Source: Cyanobacteriota bacterium
GTDB taxonomy: Bacteria > Cyanobacteriota > Cyanobacteriia > Cyanobacteriales > Nostocaceae
Direction: 5' to 3'
NCBI GenBank assembly: GCA_046045965.1
Contig: JBJOKS010000004.1
Span: forward strand, 64,001-128,000
DNA: 64,000 bases
The translations under genes and the position numbers were made by a program. Within the stretch, counting starts at the first letter, position 1; each line of letters starts with the position of its first letter. Below are positions 31,677 to 45,661 of this stretch, one piece after another. Below the pieces are notes generated by a model. The model worked only from the letters and a program-made list of their open reading frames with translations, made no database searches and was not told the DNA's origin.

Positions 31677-31927
31677 TTAGGTTGATGAACGAGAATTATT
31701 AAACCAGTCCAGAAAATGCTGTGTCATTTTTTTAGTTCCATATCTCTTTTAAAATTAAGTTTTTCCTGCTTTTCTAATTTATAAACTGTAACTGCTTCTA
31801 TATAACAAATATGGGGTATAAATATTTCTAAAGACTTAGGTGGATTATACAGCAAATTATCCGCTCGTGCATCCTGTCCTTTAGCAATAGATATTAAAAA
31901 GTTAGTTTCCATATAAACTATGGTCAT
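31677..31927 (-). pseudogene. Truncated PIN-domain protein
   Basis: IVYMETNFL (PIN beta1 motif) and IPHICYIE, stop after 67 aa at an A-run; short out-of-frame tail TQHFLDWFNN. Confidence 0.6.
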
Positions 31928-31965
31928 TTTTATATTCCTGGTACTGGTAATTAAATATAAATTAT

Positions 31966-32517
31966 CTACTCTTCTTCATAGTTTTGTGAATATGTTTCTC
32001 CATTTTTTAGCTTTGCTAATAAACCTATTTTTCCTAATTCTTCAGAGGCAGGTGGTATTTCTGATTTCCAGTGATAATTCAAATCTCTTAACCAAGAGAT
32101 CATGAGAGTTTTCAAATAGAATTGAAATATTTTTTTATCGCAAAATTCTGAATCATAATGGCTGATAATTTTTCCTGTATTTAATGATATTTCTAGTTTG
32201 CGAAATACACCATTAGTAGATTTAAAAATATTGATTTCTGTTAAATTTGCTGATATAGCAAATCTAGGGTTTTCCTGAGAGTTTTGTAAATATAGGTTAA
32301 TGACTTTTGATAAATTATTTTCATGATTTTCTAGATTTTCTTGGATGTTGACATTTGCTAATAATGCAATTTGCTGATTTTGATCTAAAACAATAATATC
32401 TGGAGAATGTAGTTGAAATAAACTTTCTATTTTTTCTGGTGAATTAACTTGATTATTCCAAATATTAGAAATTAGTCTGATTTTAACTAATTCTTCTGGT
32501 TTATCTAAGCTAAACAT
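31966..32517 (-). CDS. Hypothetical protein with a degenerate PD-(D/E)XK-like motif
   Basis: AT-rich 183-aa ORF; PDIIVLD...ALLANV resembles a restriction-endonuclease-like core without the ExK. Confidence 0.55.
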   Translation of the reverse strand: MFSLDKPEELVKIRLISNIWNNQVNSPEKIESLFQLHSPDIIVLDQNQQIALLANVNIQENLENHENNLSKVINLYLQNSQENPRFAISANLTEINIFKSTNGVFRKLEISLNTGKIISHYDSEFCDKKIFQFYLKTLMISWLRDLNYHWKSEIPPASEELGKIGLLAKLKNGETYSQNYEEE

Positions 32518-38294: not shown

Positions 38295-38300
38295 TTTCCG

Positions 38301-38328
38301 GTAGGGATAATTTATCAATTGTCCCTAC
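38301..38328. repeat. GTAG-type palindrome directly after cphA (possible terminator)
   Basis: GTAGGGATAATT-tatc-AATTGTCCCTAC. Confidence 0.6.
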
Positions 38329-38463
38329 TGTTGATTTTTCTTGATGTTTTTGGTTCGTTAGGTCGTCGGTTTTTTTATTAGTTACTAACTAGGTTGGCGT
38401 TAAAAATTATCTTGATGGTATGCTTGGAGGAAAGAGGACGGTTAAGAACAAGATAATATTATT

Positions 38464-38763
38464 ATGAGGATTATTTCTACATCAAAACTAAAACAAGATG
38501 CTAATAAATATCCCGATTTAAAACAAATTATTGATAGTTGGTGTTTGGTAGTAAAAGGTGTTATCTGGAATCATTTAGAAGATGTTAAAAATGTTTACCC
38601 TAGCGCGGAAGCAGTGGGTAATTTTACAGTTTTTAATCTCAAAGGAAATAAATATCGTTTAATTGTGGGCATAGATTATATCAAACAAATTGTTTATTAT
38701 AAATATTTATTAACTCATGCAGAATATGATAAGGATAGGTGGAAAAATGATCCGTACTATTGA
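38464..38763 (+). CDS. higB: HigB family toxin (mRNA interferase)
   Basis: MRIIS...YPSAEAVGNFTVFNLKGNKYRLIV...LTHAEYDK. Confidence 0.92.
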   Translation: MRIISTSKLKQDANKYPDLKQIIDSWCLVVKGVIWNHLEDVKNVYPSAEAVGNFTVFNLKGNKYRLIVGIDYIKQIVYYKYLLTHAEYDKDRWKNDPYY

Positions 38764-39157
38764 TCGTAATGTTTATAGTCAACTCCTAGCTAAAGTTGCT
38801 CCTAAAATTATTGAAACTGAAGCAGAATATCAATCAGCATTACAAGAAGTTGAAAAGCTTTTATTTAACAAAAATCGAACCACCGAGGAAGATACTTTAT
38901 ATGATTTATTAGTGATGTTAGTAGAAAAATATGAAACCGAAAATCATTTTTTAGAACCTGCAAAACCTCTGCAAGTTCTACAACATTTGATGGAAGAAAG
39001 GGGAATGAATGAAGCAGATTTATTAAATATCTTAGGTCTTAAAGAAGGTGATCAGGAAATAGTAACCGCTATTCTCCAAGGTGATTGTAATATCAATGCA
39101 GAACAAGCTGAATCTTTAGGTAAATATTTTCATGTTCCGTCTAGTTTATTTGTTTGA
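38747..39157 (+). CDS. higA: HigA family antitoxin (HTH)
   Basis: PKIIETEAEY, LVEKYE, LQHLMEERG...LGKYFHVPSSLF; overlaps the higB end. Confidence 0.9.
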   Translation: MIRTIDRNVYSQLLAKVAPKIIETEAEYQSALQEVEKLLFNKNRTTEEDTLYDLLVMLVEKYETENHFLEPAKPLQVLQHLMEERGMNEADLLNILGLKEGDQEIVTAILQGDCNINAEQAESLGKYFHVPSSLFV

Positions 39158-39227
39158 TTATTGAAGGTGTACAATTAGACAATGAGTAAGTTTGTAAGTA
39201 ATGGTTGGTAAATTTATTTTGATATTT

Positions 39228-39605
39228 TCATTTTTTATCATATTTTCGTTGCCAGTAAGATTTACCAGCGCGAAATGCTGCTAAAGATAGAGATTTAGTT
39301 AATAATTTTTTCTGAGTATTTATTTCTGGTTGTTCTGATGCTGGTTCATTTCTGTCTTCAAAATCTGGTAACAATAAAATTACTATCAGAAACACACCTA
39401 TAATAATTGCAATAAACCCTTCTATTTTACCCCATGTAAACTTGATAAATAACTCGAACAATAGCATTATAAAGCCTGATATACCACGCCCTGTATAACC
39501 ATCGTCAAAATTATCCATGAAGTGAGGATAGTTAATTTCTAAAATACCGATTCCTATAAGTAGGAATGAAGGAATAATACATTTTATTCTTTCTATGATA
39601 GTCAT
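39228..39605 (-). CDS. Small multi-pass membrane protein
   Basis: About three hydrophobic segments; starts 2 nt after the stop of the upstream gene. Confidence 0.7.
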   Translation of the reverse strand: MTIIERIKCIIPSFLLIGIGILEINYPHFMDNFDDGYTGRGISGFIMLLFELFIKFTWGKIEGFIAIIIGVFLIVILLLPDFEDRNEPASEQPEINTQKKLLTKSLSLAAFRAGKSYWQRKYDKK

Positions 39606-39607
39606 TT

Positions 39608-40924
39608 TTATTTCTCTTCATAAGGTAAAAGATATAAACCAGGTGGTGTATTATCATCAGGTAGAATATCTTTACTACTTTTGACATTTTCACTTTCACA
39701 TAAAACCGCAAAAGATTGTAAACTATCTAATCTCGCTAAAAGTTCGCTGAGGGTATCTAAATATTCAGCTATAGCAATTTGGCGATGTGTCCAAATTTCA
39801 TCCCATTTGCTACTATATGACATTTCAAATTCGACATCTATATTAGTTTTTTTGCGGCGAATATCTTCAGGTGATAATGTAGAATCTTGGGGAGAAATTT
39901 GGGTAATTCTTTCTACTCGTTCCGGTGTAATATGGTCTTGAAAACGAGAATGTGTAAAGCGATAAGTTGTAGATAAATAAGGGTTTTCATCTGTAATTAA
40001 TTGAGTTGCCCAATTTTGGGATATTTGTTGAAATTTATCTACTTCTATGGTTAATAATTCTCTAGCTTCTTGATGTTGTCCAATTTCTAATAATAAGTTA
40101 GCTTCTGTTGCTGTTGCTACCGCCCAACCTTGAATAGCAATATCTGTATTTAGCATTAATTCCGCGTCTAATGCTGGGGAAATTTGTAACGCTTGATTTG
40201 ATAAAAATAATCGTACTCTATTAGCAACTTTTAAAGATTCTCTAGGTGATTCGTTGGGAAATAGTTTTCTGTCGTTTAATTCGGCATTTAATGAGGCAAT
40301 TTCTTTAATTATCATTGCTTGTTGAATATGAGAAATTGCTTTAGCTAAATTTTGTTGTTTTTGGCGATTATCTTCTACTAAAAGATATAAATAGGCAAGT
40401 TGTCCAGAAATTATATCTAATCTGTTTTCTACTCTATTTAAGCCTTTTTCTAAGTTATCAAAACCTTGAGTTAATTGATTTTCAATTCTATTTAAGCCAG
40501 ATTCGAGTCGTTCAAATCCTGCTTCCATTGACTGTTGAATTTGACCTAACTTGTTTTGAATTTGATGTAATTTATAACCCATGTAAGCAAAACCAGCAAT
40601 ACTTACTCCCAGGTTTAAAACACTTGCACCAGCAGCTATTTGAGTTAATCCCATTACTGATGATAAGGTTTTTTCAATTCCCATTAATTTATGATAGGTT
40701 AATCCATGACCTATAACATCTATTCCTCCTAATACGGGGGAAAATGGAATATTTACTAATTTGTTAGTTAGTCCTGGTGTTTCTGCTAAATGGCGAACTA
40801 TTTGACCTGCTTTTTCTGTACCAGCAGCCCAGCGAATAACGCTACCATAGCGTTGCATTGAACCATTTAATAAACCTTGGATAATTTCTGGACTGTTTAA
40901 TAAAAGAGTGGTATCAATTAACAT
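39608..40924 (-). CDS. Hypothetical protein with Gly/Ala-rich hydrophobic segment and long coiled coil
   Basis: VMGLTQIAAGASVLNLGVSIAGFAYMG followed by heptad repeats; GGAG RBS upstream. Confidence 0.8.
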   Translation of the reverse strand: MLIDTTLLLNSPEIIQGLLNGSMQRYGSVIRWAAGTEKAGQIVRHLAETPGLTNKLVNIPFSPVLGGIDVIGHGLTYHKLMGIEKTLSSVMGLTQIAAGASVLNLGVSIAGFAYMGYKLHQIQNKLGQIQQSMEAGFERLESGLNRIENQLTQGFDNLEKGLNRVENRLDIISGQLAYLYLLVEDNRQKQQNLAKAISHIQQAMIIKEIASLNAELNDRKLFPNESPRESLKVANRVRLFLSNQALQISPALDAELMLNTDIAIQGWAVATATEANLLLEIGQHQEARELLTIEVDKFQQISQNWATQLITDENPYLSTTYRFTHSRFQDHITPERVERITQISPQDSTLSPEDIRRKKTNIDVEFEMSYSSKWDEIWTHRQIAIAEYLDTLSELLARLDSLQSFAVLCESENVKSSKDILPDDNTPPGLYLLPYEEK

Positions 40925-40941
40925 TTTATTATCTCCTAATT

Positions 40942-41772
40942 TTAACGATTATAAACTGCAAAATCTCCGTAGGCTTCCATTTGTAATCTAGGTGAAATGT
41001 TAAAATCAACTGTTAAATCACTTAATTTACGAAAAGCATCATATCTATCCAGTTGATTAACATTAGGTTGAAAACCTGGATCAATTCTTTTTAGTTGAAT
41101 ATAAACTAAACAAATATCATATTCTGATTCTTGTCCAGGTGATACTTGATAACGACTAATATTAGGTTGTATTGTTCTATAATCTGATTCTGAACCTGTC
41201 CATAAATATTTTGTCAGTTCATAGAGTTGTTCTCCATCATTAGAATCAATACTTCTTTTTTCTAAAATTGAATTAAGAAAATCTACTTGTGAAGCTGAAA
41301 TTACTAACACCAAAAACTGTTTAGTAATTCTTTGTACTGAAGGAGATGGAAGATTATAATCATATTTAGCAGGTCTTATTTCTAGACCACGAGTTTGTTT
41401 CTGAGGCTGTTTTTGTTTTTCATTATTAACTTTCCAAACCCAATAACCGATTGCTACAACGCCAAAAGCTATAACTACAGTAACTTTCATGTTTTCACTC
41501 CTGATATTAATTCTCTGACAAATATTATCAACCAAATAATATAATTTACTCCTTCTATTTATGAAATCTATTTTTTCCCATTCTTGATATAAATAATTAA
41601 TTAATGGTTTTATTTCAAATATATATACAGATTCATTCAAAATATAATTTTTAATATCATTATCTATTCCTAATTTACTACACCAAGCACGAACAGCAAT
41701 ATCTAGATTGTTAAGCGTGGTATTATCAGGGTGAAGTTGACTAGAAATTTCGTTGATTAATTGAAAGAACAT
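40942..41772 (-). CDS. Hypothetical single-pass membrane protein
   Basis: TM segment VTVVIAFGVVAIGYWVW followed by a basic linker and a globular C-terminal region. Confidence 0.75.
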   Translation of the reverse strand: MFFQLINEISSQLHPDNTTLNNLDIAVRAWCSKLGIDNDIKNYILNESVYIFEIKPLINYLYQEWEKIDFINRRSKLYYLVDNICQRINIRSENMKVTVVIAFGVVAIGYWVWKVNNEKQKQPQKQTRGLEIRPAKYDYNLPSPSVQRITKQFLVLVISASQVDFLNSILEKRSIDSNDGEQLYELTKYLWTGSESDYRTIQPNISRYQVSPGQESEYDICLVYIQLKRIDPGFQPNVNQLDRYDAFRKLSDLTVDFNISPRLQMEAYGDFAVYNR

Positions 41773-41870
41773 AATAAGATGTTAAACACAAAACAAAATA
41801 TAATCATTATAAATCATTCATTTGGGAATGGTCTTTATCCATTCCTGACAAATATTGAGCAAAAGCATAA

Positions 41871-44390
41871 TTAAGATTCACTAAAATCTTCTTCTAACTT
41901 TTGACAAAGTGCATTTGCTTTATCTTTTTGTAATTCAAAATCTTGCCAAAATAGTTTTTCTTGTTCAAAATTTTCCTCAATAATCCTTAACTGCTGTTCT
42001 AAAGCACGTTCAGCTAAATTAGTAATATCATTAACTGATTCCTCAAAGATGCGACTAACATAATCTAACCTTTGAAGAATCCATTTTAGTAAAATATCCC
42101 ATAAACTGCCTTTTTCTTTTGCAATTCCACTTAACCATTGTTTAGCCATTAAATCTGGAGATGGTAAAAACAATTCCACATATTCAACATCAGCAGTAAT
42201 ATCACGAGTTACTGCTTCTGTATAATTCTGAGTAACTGGCCTGCTTTTAGTTCTACTTTTTGTACTCTTAAAACAAGAACCCTCTTCATAGTATTCTGTG
42301 TAATTTTCATATTCTGTTTTAGTGCGTGTTTCATATTCTGTTTTTTGCCCAACTACCTCTTTTTTCTTAGTTTCATTTTGTTTAATGTTAGCTTCTAAAT
42401 TAAAAAAGTTCTTTGGTAAGGTTGGTAAATTCTGAGATAACTTCTTGCGTAGATCACTGATAGCTGCTTTTTCAAGGTTAATTGAAGATGCAAAAGTTTC
42501 TTCTGATAAACAGATTTTCAATCTTTTAACTTGTTCATCCACTAATGATTCTAAAGCCTGTTCAAAATCTTTAGCTTTTCCTTGGAGAAAAAACTCTGCT
42601 CTTCTTGTTATAGCTTGTCTCATACAGTGATATAACAATCTCACATGACGTTCATCATGTTCAAGTTCTTTTTTACCATTATTATCATCTGCTCTAACAC
42701 TTTTGAATAAATATTCTGATTGTGTAGAAAATTTACTCAGTCGGCGGCTAACATTATCATAAGTTTTGGCAATGTCATCAGCTAATGCAGGTGATGTCAC
42801 TTCCTGAAGTTTATCTCTTAATTCAAAAGCTCCTAAATTATTTTTTAAAGAGTCACGAACTGGAACAACTAGAACTTTAGTTAAGTCACCTTCTACTTCA
42901 TCAACTGCTTTAAAAACTTTATCAAATCCTTCAAATTTAAAACCTTTTTTTTGATAATGTTGTTTAACCTTAATAGGAGCTTGAGGATCATTTGTTTTCA
43001 AAAATCCTATTAATTTCTCAACTTCTGAACTAAACTCTTTGCCTATTTTATTGATATTTGCTTGTAAATCTTGACGAATTTTAGCTATTTTTTCTTTTTC
43101 TAATTCAACCTGTTCCTGATTATAAATTTTTCGAGTTTGAATCAGAACCTCTAATACCTGTGATAAAGCCGAATAATTTTCAAATACTTCTACTAATGCA
43201 GGAAATATTACTAACTTATCAAATGATTCTTCTACTCTGATCTGAAAACGTCGCCATAGTTCCTTACCTCCACTCCATTCTAAAGCATAGAGTAGAATTT
43301 GTAACATAGTTTCATCATTAACAGCAATTCCTTGAGATACCTGTCTTCTAATATCTCGAAACCAGTCCTCTAAATCCCAGTCATTTTCAGTATGTTCTGC
43401 TAAAATATTTGCACAGTCTTTAAACATAAATCTCAACAATTCTAATCTTGTCTTTTGCTTAACTTTTGATGGTTGATTTAAAGCACCAGCACCCCAAGCA
43501 CATTGGGCATAATATAAAAGACGAGCATTAAAAGGTAAAACATCTGGCAGTTCAGGAAGTGATAAAACTTCTTTAATTTCTGCTCTTAACTTATTAATTC
43601 TCACATCCAAAGGTAAATCATCAGCACCACGTTGATCAACTCGATTTAAAATAAAAATCATCGAGTCTGTACGCCCTTGTAAATATTCAACTACCTTTTT
43701 TAATTCTTCTAATAATCGTTTTCTATGACTATCATCAACCTGCATATAGTCCAAAGCAACTAAACTAAAAGCCTTATTAACTTGCTGTTGAATAGTTGCC
43801 AAATTAGTCCGATCTTGTACTGATTTTAAACCAGGTAAATCAATTAATTCTACCCCTATTCCTGGAGGTAAACCTAATAAATTAGGATCACAAGCTGGTA
43901 ATAAACTCACATAAGCTGTTATTTGGGGTGCTACATATTCGCGTTTTTGTCTTGCTTCATGATAGGAGTGCATGACTGAACGAATACGTTGATATAAATC
44001 ATCATCACTTAATCCCGTCCATTCTCCAGTTTCCCAAGCTGCATCTTGGGTTTTTTCAATAATTAATTTTGACTCTGAAGAATGTTTGAGTGTTAAAACT
44101 CCTCCACTCATTTCTCCTGCTTCTATGGGGGCAATTTTTCGCCCTATTAAAGCATTAACTATGGTTGATTTTCCAGAGGATGTTGTACCAATGGTAGCTA
44201 TACGAAAACTGGGATTTTCTAATCTTTCTACTGCTTCTTCAAAAGCATCTAAAAAACCATCTAAAGCTGATTTAATTCCCGGATCTGCAAATACATCAGG
44301 AGAGGAATTAACTAAATTAGCAATTGAGTTACCTAATTCGTTTAATAAAGTGCGAGCGTTGTTTAATTTGGCATCAATATTCATTACCAT
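41871..44390 (-). CDS. Bacterial dynamin-like GTPase
   Basis: G1 GTTSSGKSTIVNALIG, G3 LIDLPG, G4 ILNRVD, extensive helical trunk. Confidence 0.88.
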   Translation of the reverse strand: MVMNIDAKLNNARTLLNELGNSIANLVNSSPDVFADPGIKSALDGFLDAFEEAVERLENPSFRIATIGTTSSGKSTIVNALIGRKIAPIEAGEMSGGVLTLKHSSESKLIIEKTQDAAWETGEWTGLSDDDLYQRIRSVMHSYHEARQKREYVAPQITAYVSLLPACDPNLLGLPPGIGVELIDLPGLKSVQDRTNLATIQQQVNKAFSLVALDYMQVDDSHRKRLLEELKKVVEYLQGRTDSMIFILNRVDQRGADDLPLDVRINKLRAEIKEVLSLPELPDVLPFNARLLYYAQCAWGAGALNQPSKVKQKTRLELLRFMFKDCANILAEHTENDWDLEDWFRDIRRQVSQGIAVNDETMLQILLYALEWSGGKELWRRFQIRVEESFDKLVIFPALVEVFENYSALSQVLEVLIQTRKIYNQEQVELEKEKIAKIRQDLQANINKIGKEFSSEVEKLIGFLKTNDPQAPIKVKQHYQKKGFKFEGFDKVFKAVDEVEGDLTKVLVVPVRDSLKNNLGAFELRDKLQEVTSPALADDIAKTYDNVSRRLSKFSTQSEYLFKSVRADDNNGKKELEHDERHVRLLYHCMRQAITRRAEFFLQGKAKDFEQALESLVDEQVKRLKICLSEETFASSINLEKAAISDLRKKLSQNLPTLPKNFFNLEANIKQNETKKKEVVGQKTEYETRTKTEYENYTEYYEEGSCFKSTKSRTKSRPVTQNYTEAVTRDITADVEYVELFLPSPDLMAKQWLSGIAKEKGSLWDILLKWILQRLDYVSRIFEESVNDITNLAERALEQQLRIIEENFEQEKLFWQDFELQKDKANALCQKLEEDFSES

Positions 44391-44647
44391 TGAGTTTACC
44401 TTTTAATAATCTTGGTTGATGAGGTGTAATAAAAAGCAGATTTAGATAATGGTTTAAATCAAGGATGTAAACAGATTAGACTAAAAATATAAGCAAGATT
44501 GAAAACACGGATACGAGTAATACCCTTGCAATACTAAATATCATAACTAGGTTTAAGTGTGATTGTAAATACTTATTTGGTGAATTTTTTGATAATTTTG
44601 TTAAAAGAAATACATAAAGATTAAACTTTTTTAATAATCCAATAATC

Positions 44648-44695
44648 CAGGGAATAAATTCCCTGTCTAAAAGCTCAAGTCGGTTAAAACTGACT
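44648..44695. repeat. Double-hairpin REP-like element
   Basis: CAGGGAAT-aa-ATTCCCTG and AGTCGGTT-aa-AACTGACT. Confidence 0.55.
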
Positions 44696-44819
44696 AGAAT
44701 CTAAGGTAATTTACTATTTAACAATCACATCCTGAAAATCCTTAAATCCTGGAAATCCTGATTCAAACAATTAATAATTTATAATTAATCTAACTATAAC
44801 TTTTCAAAAGGTAAGAGTT

Positions 44820-45395: not shown

Positions 45396-45493
45396 TATTA
45401 GATCCCTGATTTCTTCTATCATGAGGAAGTCAGGGATTTATCAAAATCCTCATCTTGTAAATCCTTACATCCTGGATATCCTGATTCTGACAA

Positions 45494-45661
45494 TTATGAT
45501 TGTTCTGAATTATCATCTTCATCAGTCTTTTTCATTCCCTCTTGAAAATTCTTGAGGCTTTTTCCTAAAACTCCCCCCAACTCAGGAATTTTCTTGGGTC
45601 CAAAAATCAAAATTGCTACTATGGCAATGATCACTACTTCCGGCCATCCTAATCCAAACAT
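45494..45661 (-). CDS. tatA: Twin-arginine translocase TatA/E subunit
   Basis: MFGLGWPEVVIIAIVAILIFGPKKIPELG. Confidence 0.95.
   Translation of the reverse strand: MFGLGWPEVVIIAIVAILIFGPKKIPELGGVLGKSLKNFQEGMKKTDEDDNSEQS

Follow-up and report, generated by a model that had tools for sequence, protein, structure and literature searches.

A 64,000-nucleotide stretch of a Nostocaceae genome (the window) carries four closely spaced genes encoding a dynamin-like protein (DLP), a single-transmembrane (TM) protein (B), a protein with homology to the phage-defence protein JukB (C) and a small membrane protein (D) (Table 1). The first-pass annotation of this DNA, made from the sequence alone, had presented these co-directional, AT-rich open reading frames (ORFs) as a candidate four-gene, membrane-acting defence system. 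Their positions and intergenic gaps (98, 17 and 2 nt for DLP/B, B/C and C/D, respectively) were borne out, all on the minus strand, as was their composition: GC content over 39228–44390 is 0.315 against 0.381 for the genome, exceeding that of only 0.4% of 963 genomic segments of 5.2 kb each. All four genes are single-copy in their genome, and D, described at first as a multi-TM protein, has 2–3 hydrophobic segments (strong, moderate and weak). The number of genes was not upheld, the conserved unit consisting of DLP, B and C, with D as a local passenger.

Table 1. Features at the locus, in window coordinates
Feature	Positions	Strand	Description
DLP	41871–44390	minus	839 aa, dynamin-like GTPase
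B	40942–41772	minus	276 aa, single-TM protein
C	39608–40924	minus	438 aa, JukB-like protein
D	39228–39605	minus	125 aa, membrane protein
higB-higA	38464–39157	plus	toxin-antitoxin pair, convergent with the DLP-B-C module, within the variable island
Variable island	38539–44640		6.1 kb, 3' of cphA; holds higBA, D, C, B and DLP; defined by alignment to genome G001

Composition of the conserved unit

A scan of GTDB genomes with C yielded 45 loci, and DLP, B and C are all present in this order in 38 of them, some of these copies being broken (e.g., L048, L056, L062). Among the seven exceptions, C sits at or close to the end of a contig in four (L045, still with B, L046, L070 and L073), one consists of a truncated C alone (L074), in one C follows DLP directly with no B between them (L057), and another (L038, 9371–11155) is an in-frame fusion of the first 211 DLP residues to C. 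An N-terminal part of DLP is likewise fused in frame to C in P0170, and both fusions apparently arose by deletion of the remaining DLP and B. When the search started from DLP, 28 of 101 related genomes matched, comprising 13 full-length genes of the module type (the present one included), seven that are fused, broken or fragmentary, and eight of a sister type described below; B and then C come next after all 13 full-length module-type genes, in one case across a contig break. B is found in 21 of 401 cyanobacterial genomes, all within the window's own order, and 14 previously unseen B loci divide into ten DLP-B-C modules, three of the sister type and one remnant. All three genes are likewise present in 13 of 16 metagenome loci of the C clade, the other three being cut by contig ends. 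In contrast, D follows C in 2 of the 45 loci, both close relatives, and occurs in 2 of the 101 genomes, its own included, with no DLP, B or C homologue found in the 14 kb around its second copy (G073). On these counts the four-gene candidate was rejected and the unit is taken to comprise three genes, so that the proposed co-occurrence of the partners with the dynamin holds for B and C and fails for D.

The three proteins and their relatives

C had been listed as a protein of no known family with a Gly/Ala-rich segment and a coiled coil. Hydropathy analysis agrees with this layout (a mild Gly/Ala segment at 89–115, then the coiled coil), to which a small N-terminal beta domain and a terminal helical bundle can be added, and no part of the module is better conserved than the hydrophobic segment, taken as residues 88–122 (mean identity 0.87). 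More importantly, its family can be named. The PADLOC JukB model matches residues 8–133 (E 8.3e-14) and all 35 C homologues of the alignment, while a profile search with the C family found 594 representatives at E ≤ 0.001, and 36 of 45 scanned proteins, taken from the best 150 representatives, match JukB at E ≤ 1e-5. For a profile of 66 representatives (A4) the only significant PDB sequence is the JukB crystal structure 9jht (E 3.4e-7; next 0.063); the narrow C profile (A1) retrieved nothing significant from the PDB, its haemagglutinin rows being coiled-coil noise. Among the proteins retrieved with C is a true JukB (PADLOC E 4e-142), encoded beside jukA on a Pseudomonas plasmid and matched by the C profile at E 4e-15 in a single comparison. 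R31 of C, invariant in A1, aligns with R33 of this plasmid protein, the Pseudomonas JukB used for the comparison; in P. aeruginosa JukB, R31A is reported to be inactivating (10.1101/2022.09.17.508391). Fold searches, too, lead to JukB: Foldseek ranks 9jht first for the AlphaFold2 (AF2) model of C, at a non-significant E of 0.12, and VIA-align superposes the two along most of the chain (residues 3–401, Z 9.0, root-mean-square deviation 6.5, 204 aligned), 9jht being the only listed match that starts at the N-terminus. An ESM Atlas search returned only unnamed cyanobacterial clusters. By this homology C is a relative of JukB at the superfamily level and is predicted to be a pore-forming effector, making the defence reading more specific than it was in the first-pass annotation.

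In Juk, JukA senses and recruits JukB and infected cells survive; JukA is described with varied effectors, and the JukB family includes cyanobacterial members (10.1101/2022.09.17.508391). According to two reviews, JukB assembles into tetrameric pores that rupture the vesicle in which the phage begins its infection (PMC13434031, PMC13282480). Homology between C and JukB extends over the N-terminal beta domain, the hydrophobic segment and the start of the coiled coil, but C exceeds JukB in length by about 110 aa and reaches 50 bits with the JukB model, where a true JukB reaches 471. No jukA was found beside an intact module (tblastn with the plasmid JukA and the genome's own YaaW, 91 loci), the sole match being in L093, a C-fragment locus without DLP. 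The partners are instead a dynamin and a TM protein, so that whereas Juk varies the effector of JukA, here a JukB-like effector has a different partner. One could argue that C works with an unlinked JukA as ordinary Juk, DLP and B being a separate co-located unit, since a JukA/YaaW-like gene does exist on another contig of this genome (PADLOC JukA E 4.4e-7; PF03981 was not found in the genome) and C is missing from the sister cassette, which keeps DLP and B. This is very unlikely given that C begins some 10–20 nt after B in most loci, that the full-length module-type DLP is never without C in 13 cases, and that the C body and the G-domain of DLP diverge in step (Spearman 0.90; 24 related loci, which are not independent).

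JukB-like genes were also encountered outside the module. Distant ones precede an unrelated 870-aa dynamin (L124 and L126; partial in L125 and L127) or a dynamin pair (L150), and one follows a vWA-PP2C-kinase triad (L169). JukB-like domains are fused to Lipase_3 or LRAT in P0123, P0137, P0141, P0145, P0149, P0260 and P0215, and C reaches the size of the lipase fusions, 585–632 aa, in two cyanobacterial modules (L089, L187), a likeness of length. A 388-aa JukB-like gene lies inside DUF499-DUF7680-DUF1156-SNF2 clusters (L151–L154, L160, L162–L165) and a further one is flanked by two helicases on a Chlorohelix plasmid (L194), in both settings with no evident jukA. Several Nostocales and their kin carry a solo JukB-like paralogue of 375–474 aa without dynamin (L096–L099, L101, L103–L108, L111; duplicated in L098 and absent from G000), in many cases beside a 467-aa gene of the nitrogenase component family, presumably chlN. 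Plasmid NZ_CP044084.1 holds an unannotated canonical jukAB pair (L193:5240–6927) between a type I restriction-modification system and a STY4851/ECs_5259-helicase cluster.

DLP, as originally proposed, is a bacterial dynamin-like protein, judging by domain and motifs. Pfam Dynamin_N matches at 58.7 bits (cut-off 27, E 9.6e-16), and the G1, G3 and G4 motifs (P-loop GTTSSGKS at 68–75, DLPG and NRVD) are intact and conserved across a 27-sequence alignment (A3), with Nostoc BDLP 2j68 as the best PDB match (E 1.1e-5). A long helical stalk is accompanied by a beta-hairpin-like insert of variable length (about 690–740), and none of the 27 sequences has a strongly hydrophobic paddle, the highest 19-residue hydropathy being 0.9–1.5. 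GTP hydrolysis and membrane remodelling would be expected of a family member. The cyanobacterial DLP clades named KGK, HSR1, Tandem A/B and Chaperone (PMC5827413) share Dynamin_N and the extended P-loop motif, whereas the module has B and C downstream, in place of a KGK, HSR1 or DnaK gene or another dynamin. The C gene of O. nigro-viridis PCC 7112 is Osc7112_2185, away from the three DLPs listed for the strain (2088, 2089, 5337; PMC5827413), and some unclassified entries of that survey may belong to the present family. A more functional comparison is offered by Eleos, a two-dynamin system that protects against jumbo phages AR9 and PBS1 and requires its P-loops (10.1101/2022.05.11.491447), the mechanism of its dynamins being stated to be unknown. 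Eleos resembles the module in having a dynamin-like GTPase with an intact P-loop in a mobile operon. However, the module has one dynamin, which matches LeoA only over residues 10–95 (E 7.5e-11) and LeoBC weakly (E 2e-7), and adds a JukB-like gene and a probable TM adaptor.

B, rightly described as a single-TM protein, has one strong TM at about 94–117 by hydropathy, as do 36 of 40 members of its alignment (A2). The helical domain preceding it is hypervariable and sometimes missing, while a linker and a conserved alpha/beta domain (about 150–276) follow. This N-domain is only 27–28% identical to those of L031 and L032, where the C body is 96–97% identical, and the same stretch is replaced likewise in a contig from an RNA run. 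B has no family match in Pfam, PADLOC or NCBIfam, its profile found nothing significant in the PDB, an ESM Atlas search gave nothing usable, and no fold match emerged from its AF2 model (predicted local distance difference test, pLDDT, 84.6; predicted template modelling score 0.50), with a best Foldseek E of 0.15 and a best VIA Z of 4.9, VIA rows covering only residues 1–125 and barely probing the C-terminal domain. The positive-inside rule splits the membrane topology 18 to 12 among 36 members. Modelled together, DLP and B gave a complex score of 0.58 (best of three controls 0.00), with runs agreeing in at least 78% of contacts and a partner pLDDT of at least 83. In calibration, scores of up to 0.60 comprise 18 of 157 solved complexes and both of the two mismatched pairs, among 215, that passed, and the tool grades such a score weak, more often wrong than right unless the interaction is likely beforehand. 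Complex modelling, which the first-pass annotation had suggested, thus lends weak support to B binding DLP. B is likely a membrane adaptor of the dynamin, and the lack of a strongly hydrophobic segment in DLP would fit the need for a separate anchor.

In the sister cassette a related DLP, its G-domain about 40% identical, and a B-like TM gene are followed by a distant second dynamin of about 760 aa instead of C. It is complete in six of eight genomes, one having no second dynamin and one being cut by a contig end. B and the B-like protein are homologous (hhalign probability 92.6, E 4e-7), and both DLP types form one supported clade (99/98, in a tree of 19 rows with long branches and no reference dynamins). 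Since the cassette keeps DLP and the B-like gene and swaps C, DLP and B form the core and the third gene is exchangeable. The cassette (L112:6865–12381, L113, L117, L118, L119, L188–L190) is patchy in cyanobacteria and present in the same-genus genome G002; its second dynamin, of 760 aa, bears the P-loop GLEKAGKS and has no PADLOC match. With two dynamins it recalls Eleos, but matches to the Leo models are weak or none, and DLP-B-DLP2 is a candidate system in its own right.

Dionysus (DinA-DinB-DinC; 10.1101/2025.09.30.679545), compared here by description only, likewise comprises three genes, among them one for a TM protein and one for a pore-forming effector that targets the phage vesicle, and may be regarded as a functional analogue of the module. 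It has no dynamin, its DinA is MAEBL-like, its DinC is described as ClyA/Hbl-like whereas C is JukB-like, and the TerB domain, a feature of DinB, has no Pfam match in DLP, B, C or D. No complete system of PADLOC-DB 2.0 matches the module, and the DLP-B-C cassette is not described in the literature searched, in keeping with the original impression of novelty; the search did not extend to the final Juk paper or to the preprint's supplementary JukB family table, which mentions cyanobacteria and may already name some C proteins as JukB. The module is neither Juk nor Eleos and falls outside the named cyanobacterial DLP clades.

Mobility and genomic context

Flanking genes vary by locus, except among close kin, and the patchy occurrence of the module agrees with the expectation that it is no core feature of Nostocales. 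The same-genus genome G001 matches the window through 38538 and again from 44641 onward. It lacks the roughly 6.1 kb between these points, which hold higBA, D, C, B and DLP, and as G001 keeps the first bases of higB, loss of the island is as possible as gain. No terminal repeats bounding the island were found, and HIP1 octamer sites are absent from 38300–44700 (6.4 kb), where about 3 are expected at the genome rate. At the same site 3' of cphA another genome of the genus, G003, carries a different, unrelated dynamin of 795 aa (L174:10177–12564), so that the site may be a hotspot for dynamin-type cargo; in G002 other genes follow cphA. One module copy resides on a conjugative Nostoc plasmid, and broken, fused or remnant copies occur (L038, L048, L074, L089); no relative of C was found in viral contigs (0 of 203 candidates). 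Several metagenome loci of the C clade have 63–70% GC, and the nearest named relatives of a DLP from such a locus belong to Polyangiales, Myxococcales and a Deltaproteobacteria bin, so that the module probably reaches myxobacteria besides filamentous cyanobacteria. Cultured strains carrying the genes (Chlorogloeopsis fritschii PCC 6912, Calothrix NIES-2100, and Nostoc TCL26-01 on a plasmid) make it open to experiment.

The flanking genes named at first reading were verified in part, HigB (PF09907, E 2e-27) and a DUF433 gene (E 1e-13) being clear and an Rpn remnant giving only a sub-threshold DUF4351 match (E 0.05), although the remnant shares 82% identity with a portion of a 315-aa ORF of L031. 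In that locus higA also adjoins the module, and further higBA-like copies are present elsewhere in the genome. Although higB matches PADLOC PD-Lambda-2_A (E 1e-24), the match of higA to PD-Lambda-2_B is confined to the first 86 of the model's 402 positions, and the two are therefore considered an ordinary HigBA pair. Promoter and terminator scans of the locus gave chance-level counts (32 against 36.7 expected and 4 against 2.4 expected, respectively), and contigs from RNA runs of four studies cover parts of the locus or its relatives, transcription not being demonstrable from them. A short dispersed repeat of about 46–55 nt lies at 44720–44775 and 45451–45496; it has 122 matches of at least 35 nt on 41 contigs of the genome and is also found at the G001 junction, where the island is missing. 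Elsewhere in the window (31724–32517), two AT-rich short ORFs lie between ispF and a peptide-binding protein gene, one of them (67 aa) having by eye the look of a PIN-domain fragment.

Function of the module

A defence function is suggested by the identity of the components, their mobility and selected contexts, not by island enrichment. One copy lies inside BREX, between pglX and pglZ-brxL (L136). In L037 the module is flanked by cas12k and a type I methylase region and in L139 by GmrSD and Z1 genes, while in L192 it precedes an Hma-like cluster. Defence in one form or another, whether directed at a phage-associated membrane or at that of the host, is considered probable. The specific reading we favour, with a probability of about 0.42, is that DLP-B-C is a phage defence in which the dynamin replaces JukA, C forms pores in a phage-associated membrane and the cell survives. 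B, anchored in the membrane, would hold DLP there, its hypervariable N-domain perhaps serving as a sensor. On infection, the GTPase would assemble at a disturbed or phage-derived membrane and, in JukA's place, gather C at the infection site, possibly by GTP-driven recruitment. The hydrophobic segment of C would then insert and give rise to JukB-like pores in the phage-associated membrane, halting infection early.

A number of observations weigh against this reading. Enrichment near defence genes, which the first-pass annotation had thought worth seeking, is not seen around the 45 loci: PADLOC matches at E ≤ 1e-25 are found for 18 of 149 near ORFs (the 153 nearest, four left out) and 14 of 145 far ORFs (a random draw from 194, all within 10 kb of the loci and thus no genome background). 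Several of these neighbour matches are generic kinases, and most cyanobacterial copies have no recognised adjoining defence gene. Significant homology between C and JukB spans only about residues 8–135, the first third; the AF2 model of C has a pLDDT of 61, falling under 50 over 53–190, and designed helical proteins outscore JukB in Z against it. Kin genomes among the counted loci are not independent, B is missing from L057, and the sister cassette dispenses with C. The unlinked JukA/YaaW-like gene and the solo JukB-like paralogue point the same way, and the reading would need vesicle-forming jumbo phages to infect these hosts.

As the main alternative it is conceivable, if unlikely, that the same three-part defence is directed inward, C forming pores in the host's own membrane, so that the infected cell of a filament or swarm is killed or isolated (abortive infection). 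B is anchored in the host membrane, every non-self match of B falls within the window's order, and kin of DLP occur in Polyangiales and Myxococcales, this order and the two myxobacterial ones being largely multicellular groups. The helical bundle of C, moreover, resembles the pore-forming domain of Cry proteins (Z 9–10). Values of this size are, however, unspecific for helical bundles, and both JukB and DinC of Dionysus spare the host membrane, the cell surviving. The Cry-like bundle, together with the lipase and LRAT fusions and the description of LeoA as related to outer membrane vesicles, could alternatively hint at an interbacterial or anti-grazer toxin, with C loaded into vesicles by the dynamin and B providing anchorage or immunity. 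Such a role is most improbable: C has no N-terminal hydrophobic signal, secretion genes do not recur in the flanks, and the nearest relative with a characterised function acts in defence inside the cell.

The flat neighbour test would, on the other hand, suit a module that has nothing to do with phage and serves membrane repair or remodelling under stress, in the manner of other cyanobacterial dynamins proposed for upkeep of thylakoid or cell membrane. Repair roles have been proposed for SynDLP and DynA (PMC9950537), and the solo JukB-like paralogue occupies an apparently stable context. The module itself is patchy, low in GC, plasmid-borne or missing at a syntenic site, and known also from broken, fused and remnant copies; these features, along with the hypervariable N-domain of B, the JukB kinship and the insertion inside BREX, render such a role quite improbable.

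With these relatives, JukB is no longer a small family dependent on JukA but widens into a modular superfamily, and the module joins two families, JukB and the dynamins, each tied to jumbo-phage defence in separate systems. It offers a testable immune role for bacterial dynamins, for which B, without family or fold match, would be a dedicated membrane adaptor. A broader proposal, doubtful at present, is that a dynamin with its own membrane receptor forms an interchangeable sensing platform, to which a JukB-like pore, a fusion of lipase and JukB or a further dynamin can be joined as effector, and that the coupling of JukB-like pores to dynamins arose on more than one occasion. Such a platform would constitute a bacterial counterpart of the Mx/GBP-type GTPases that attack the membrane of an invader, and its existence would mean that bloom-forming cyanobacteria and myxobacteria are hosts to vesicle-forming jumbo phages.

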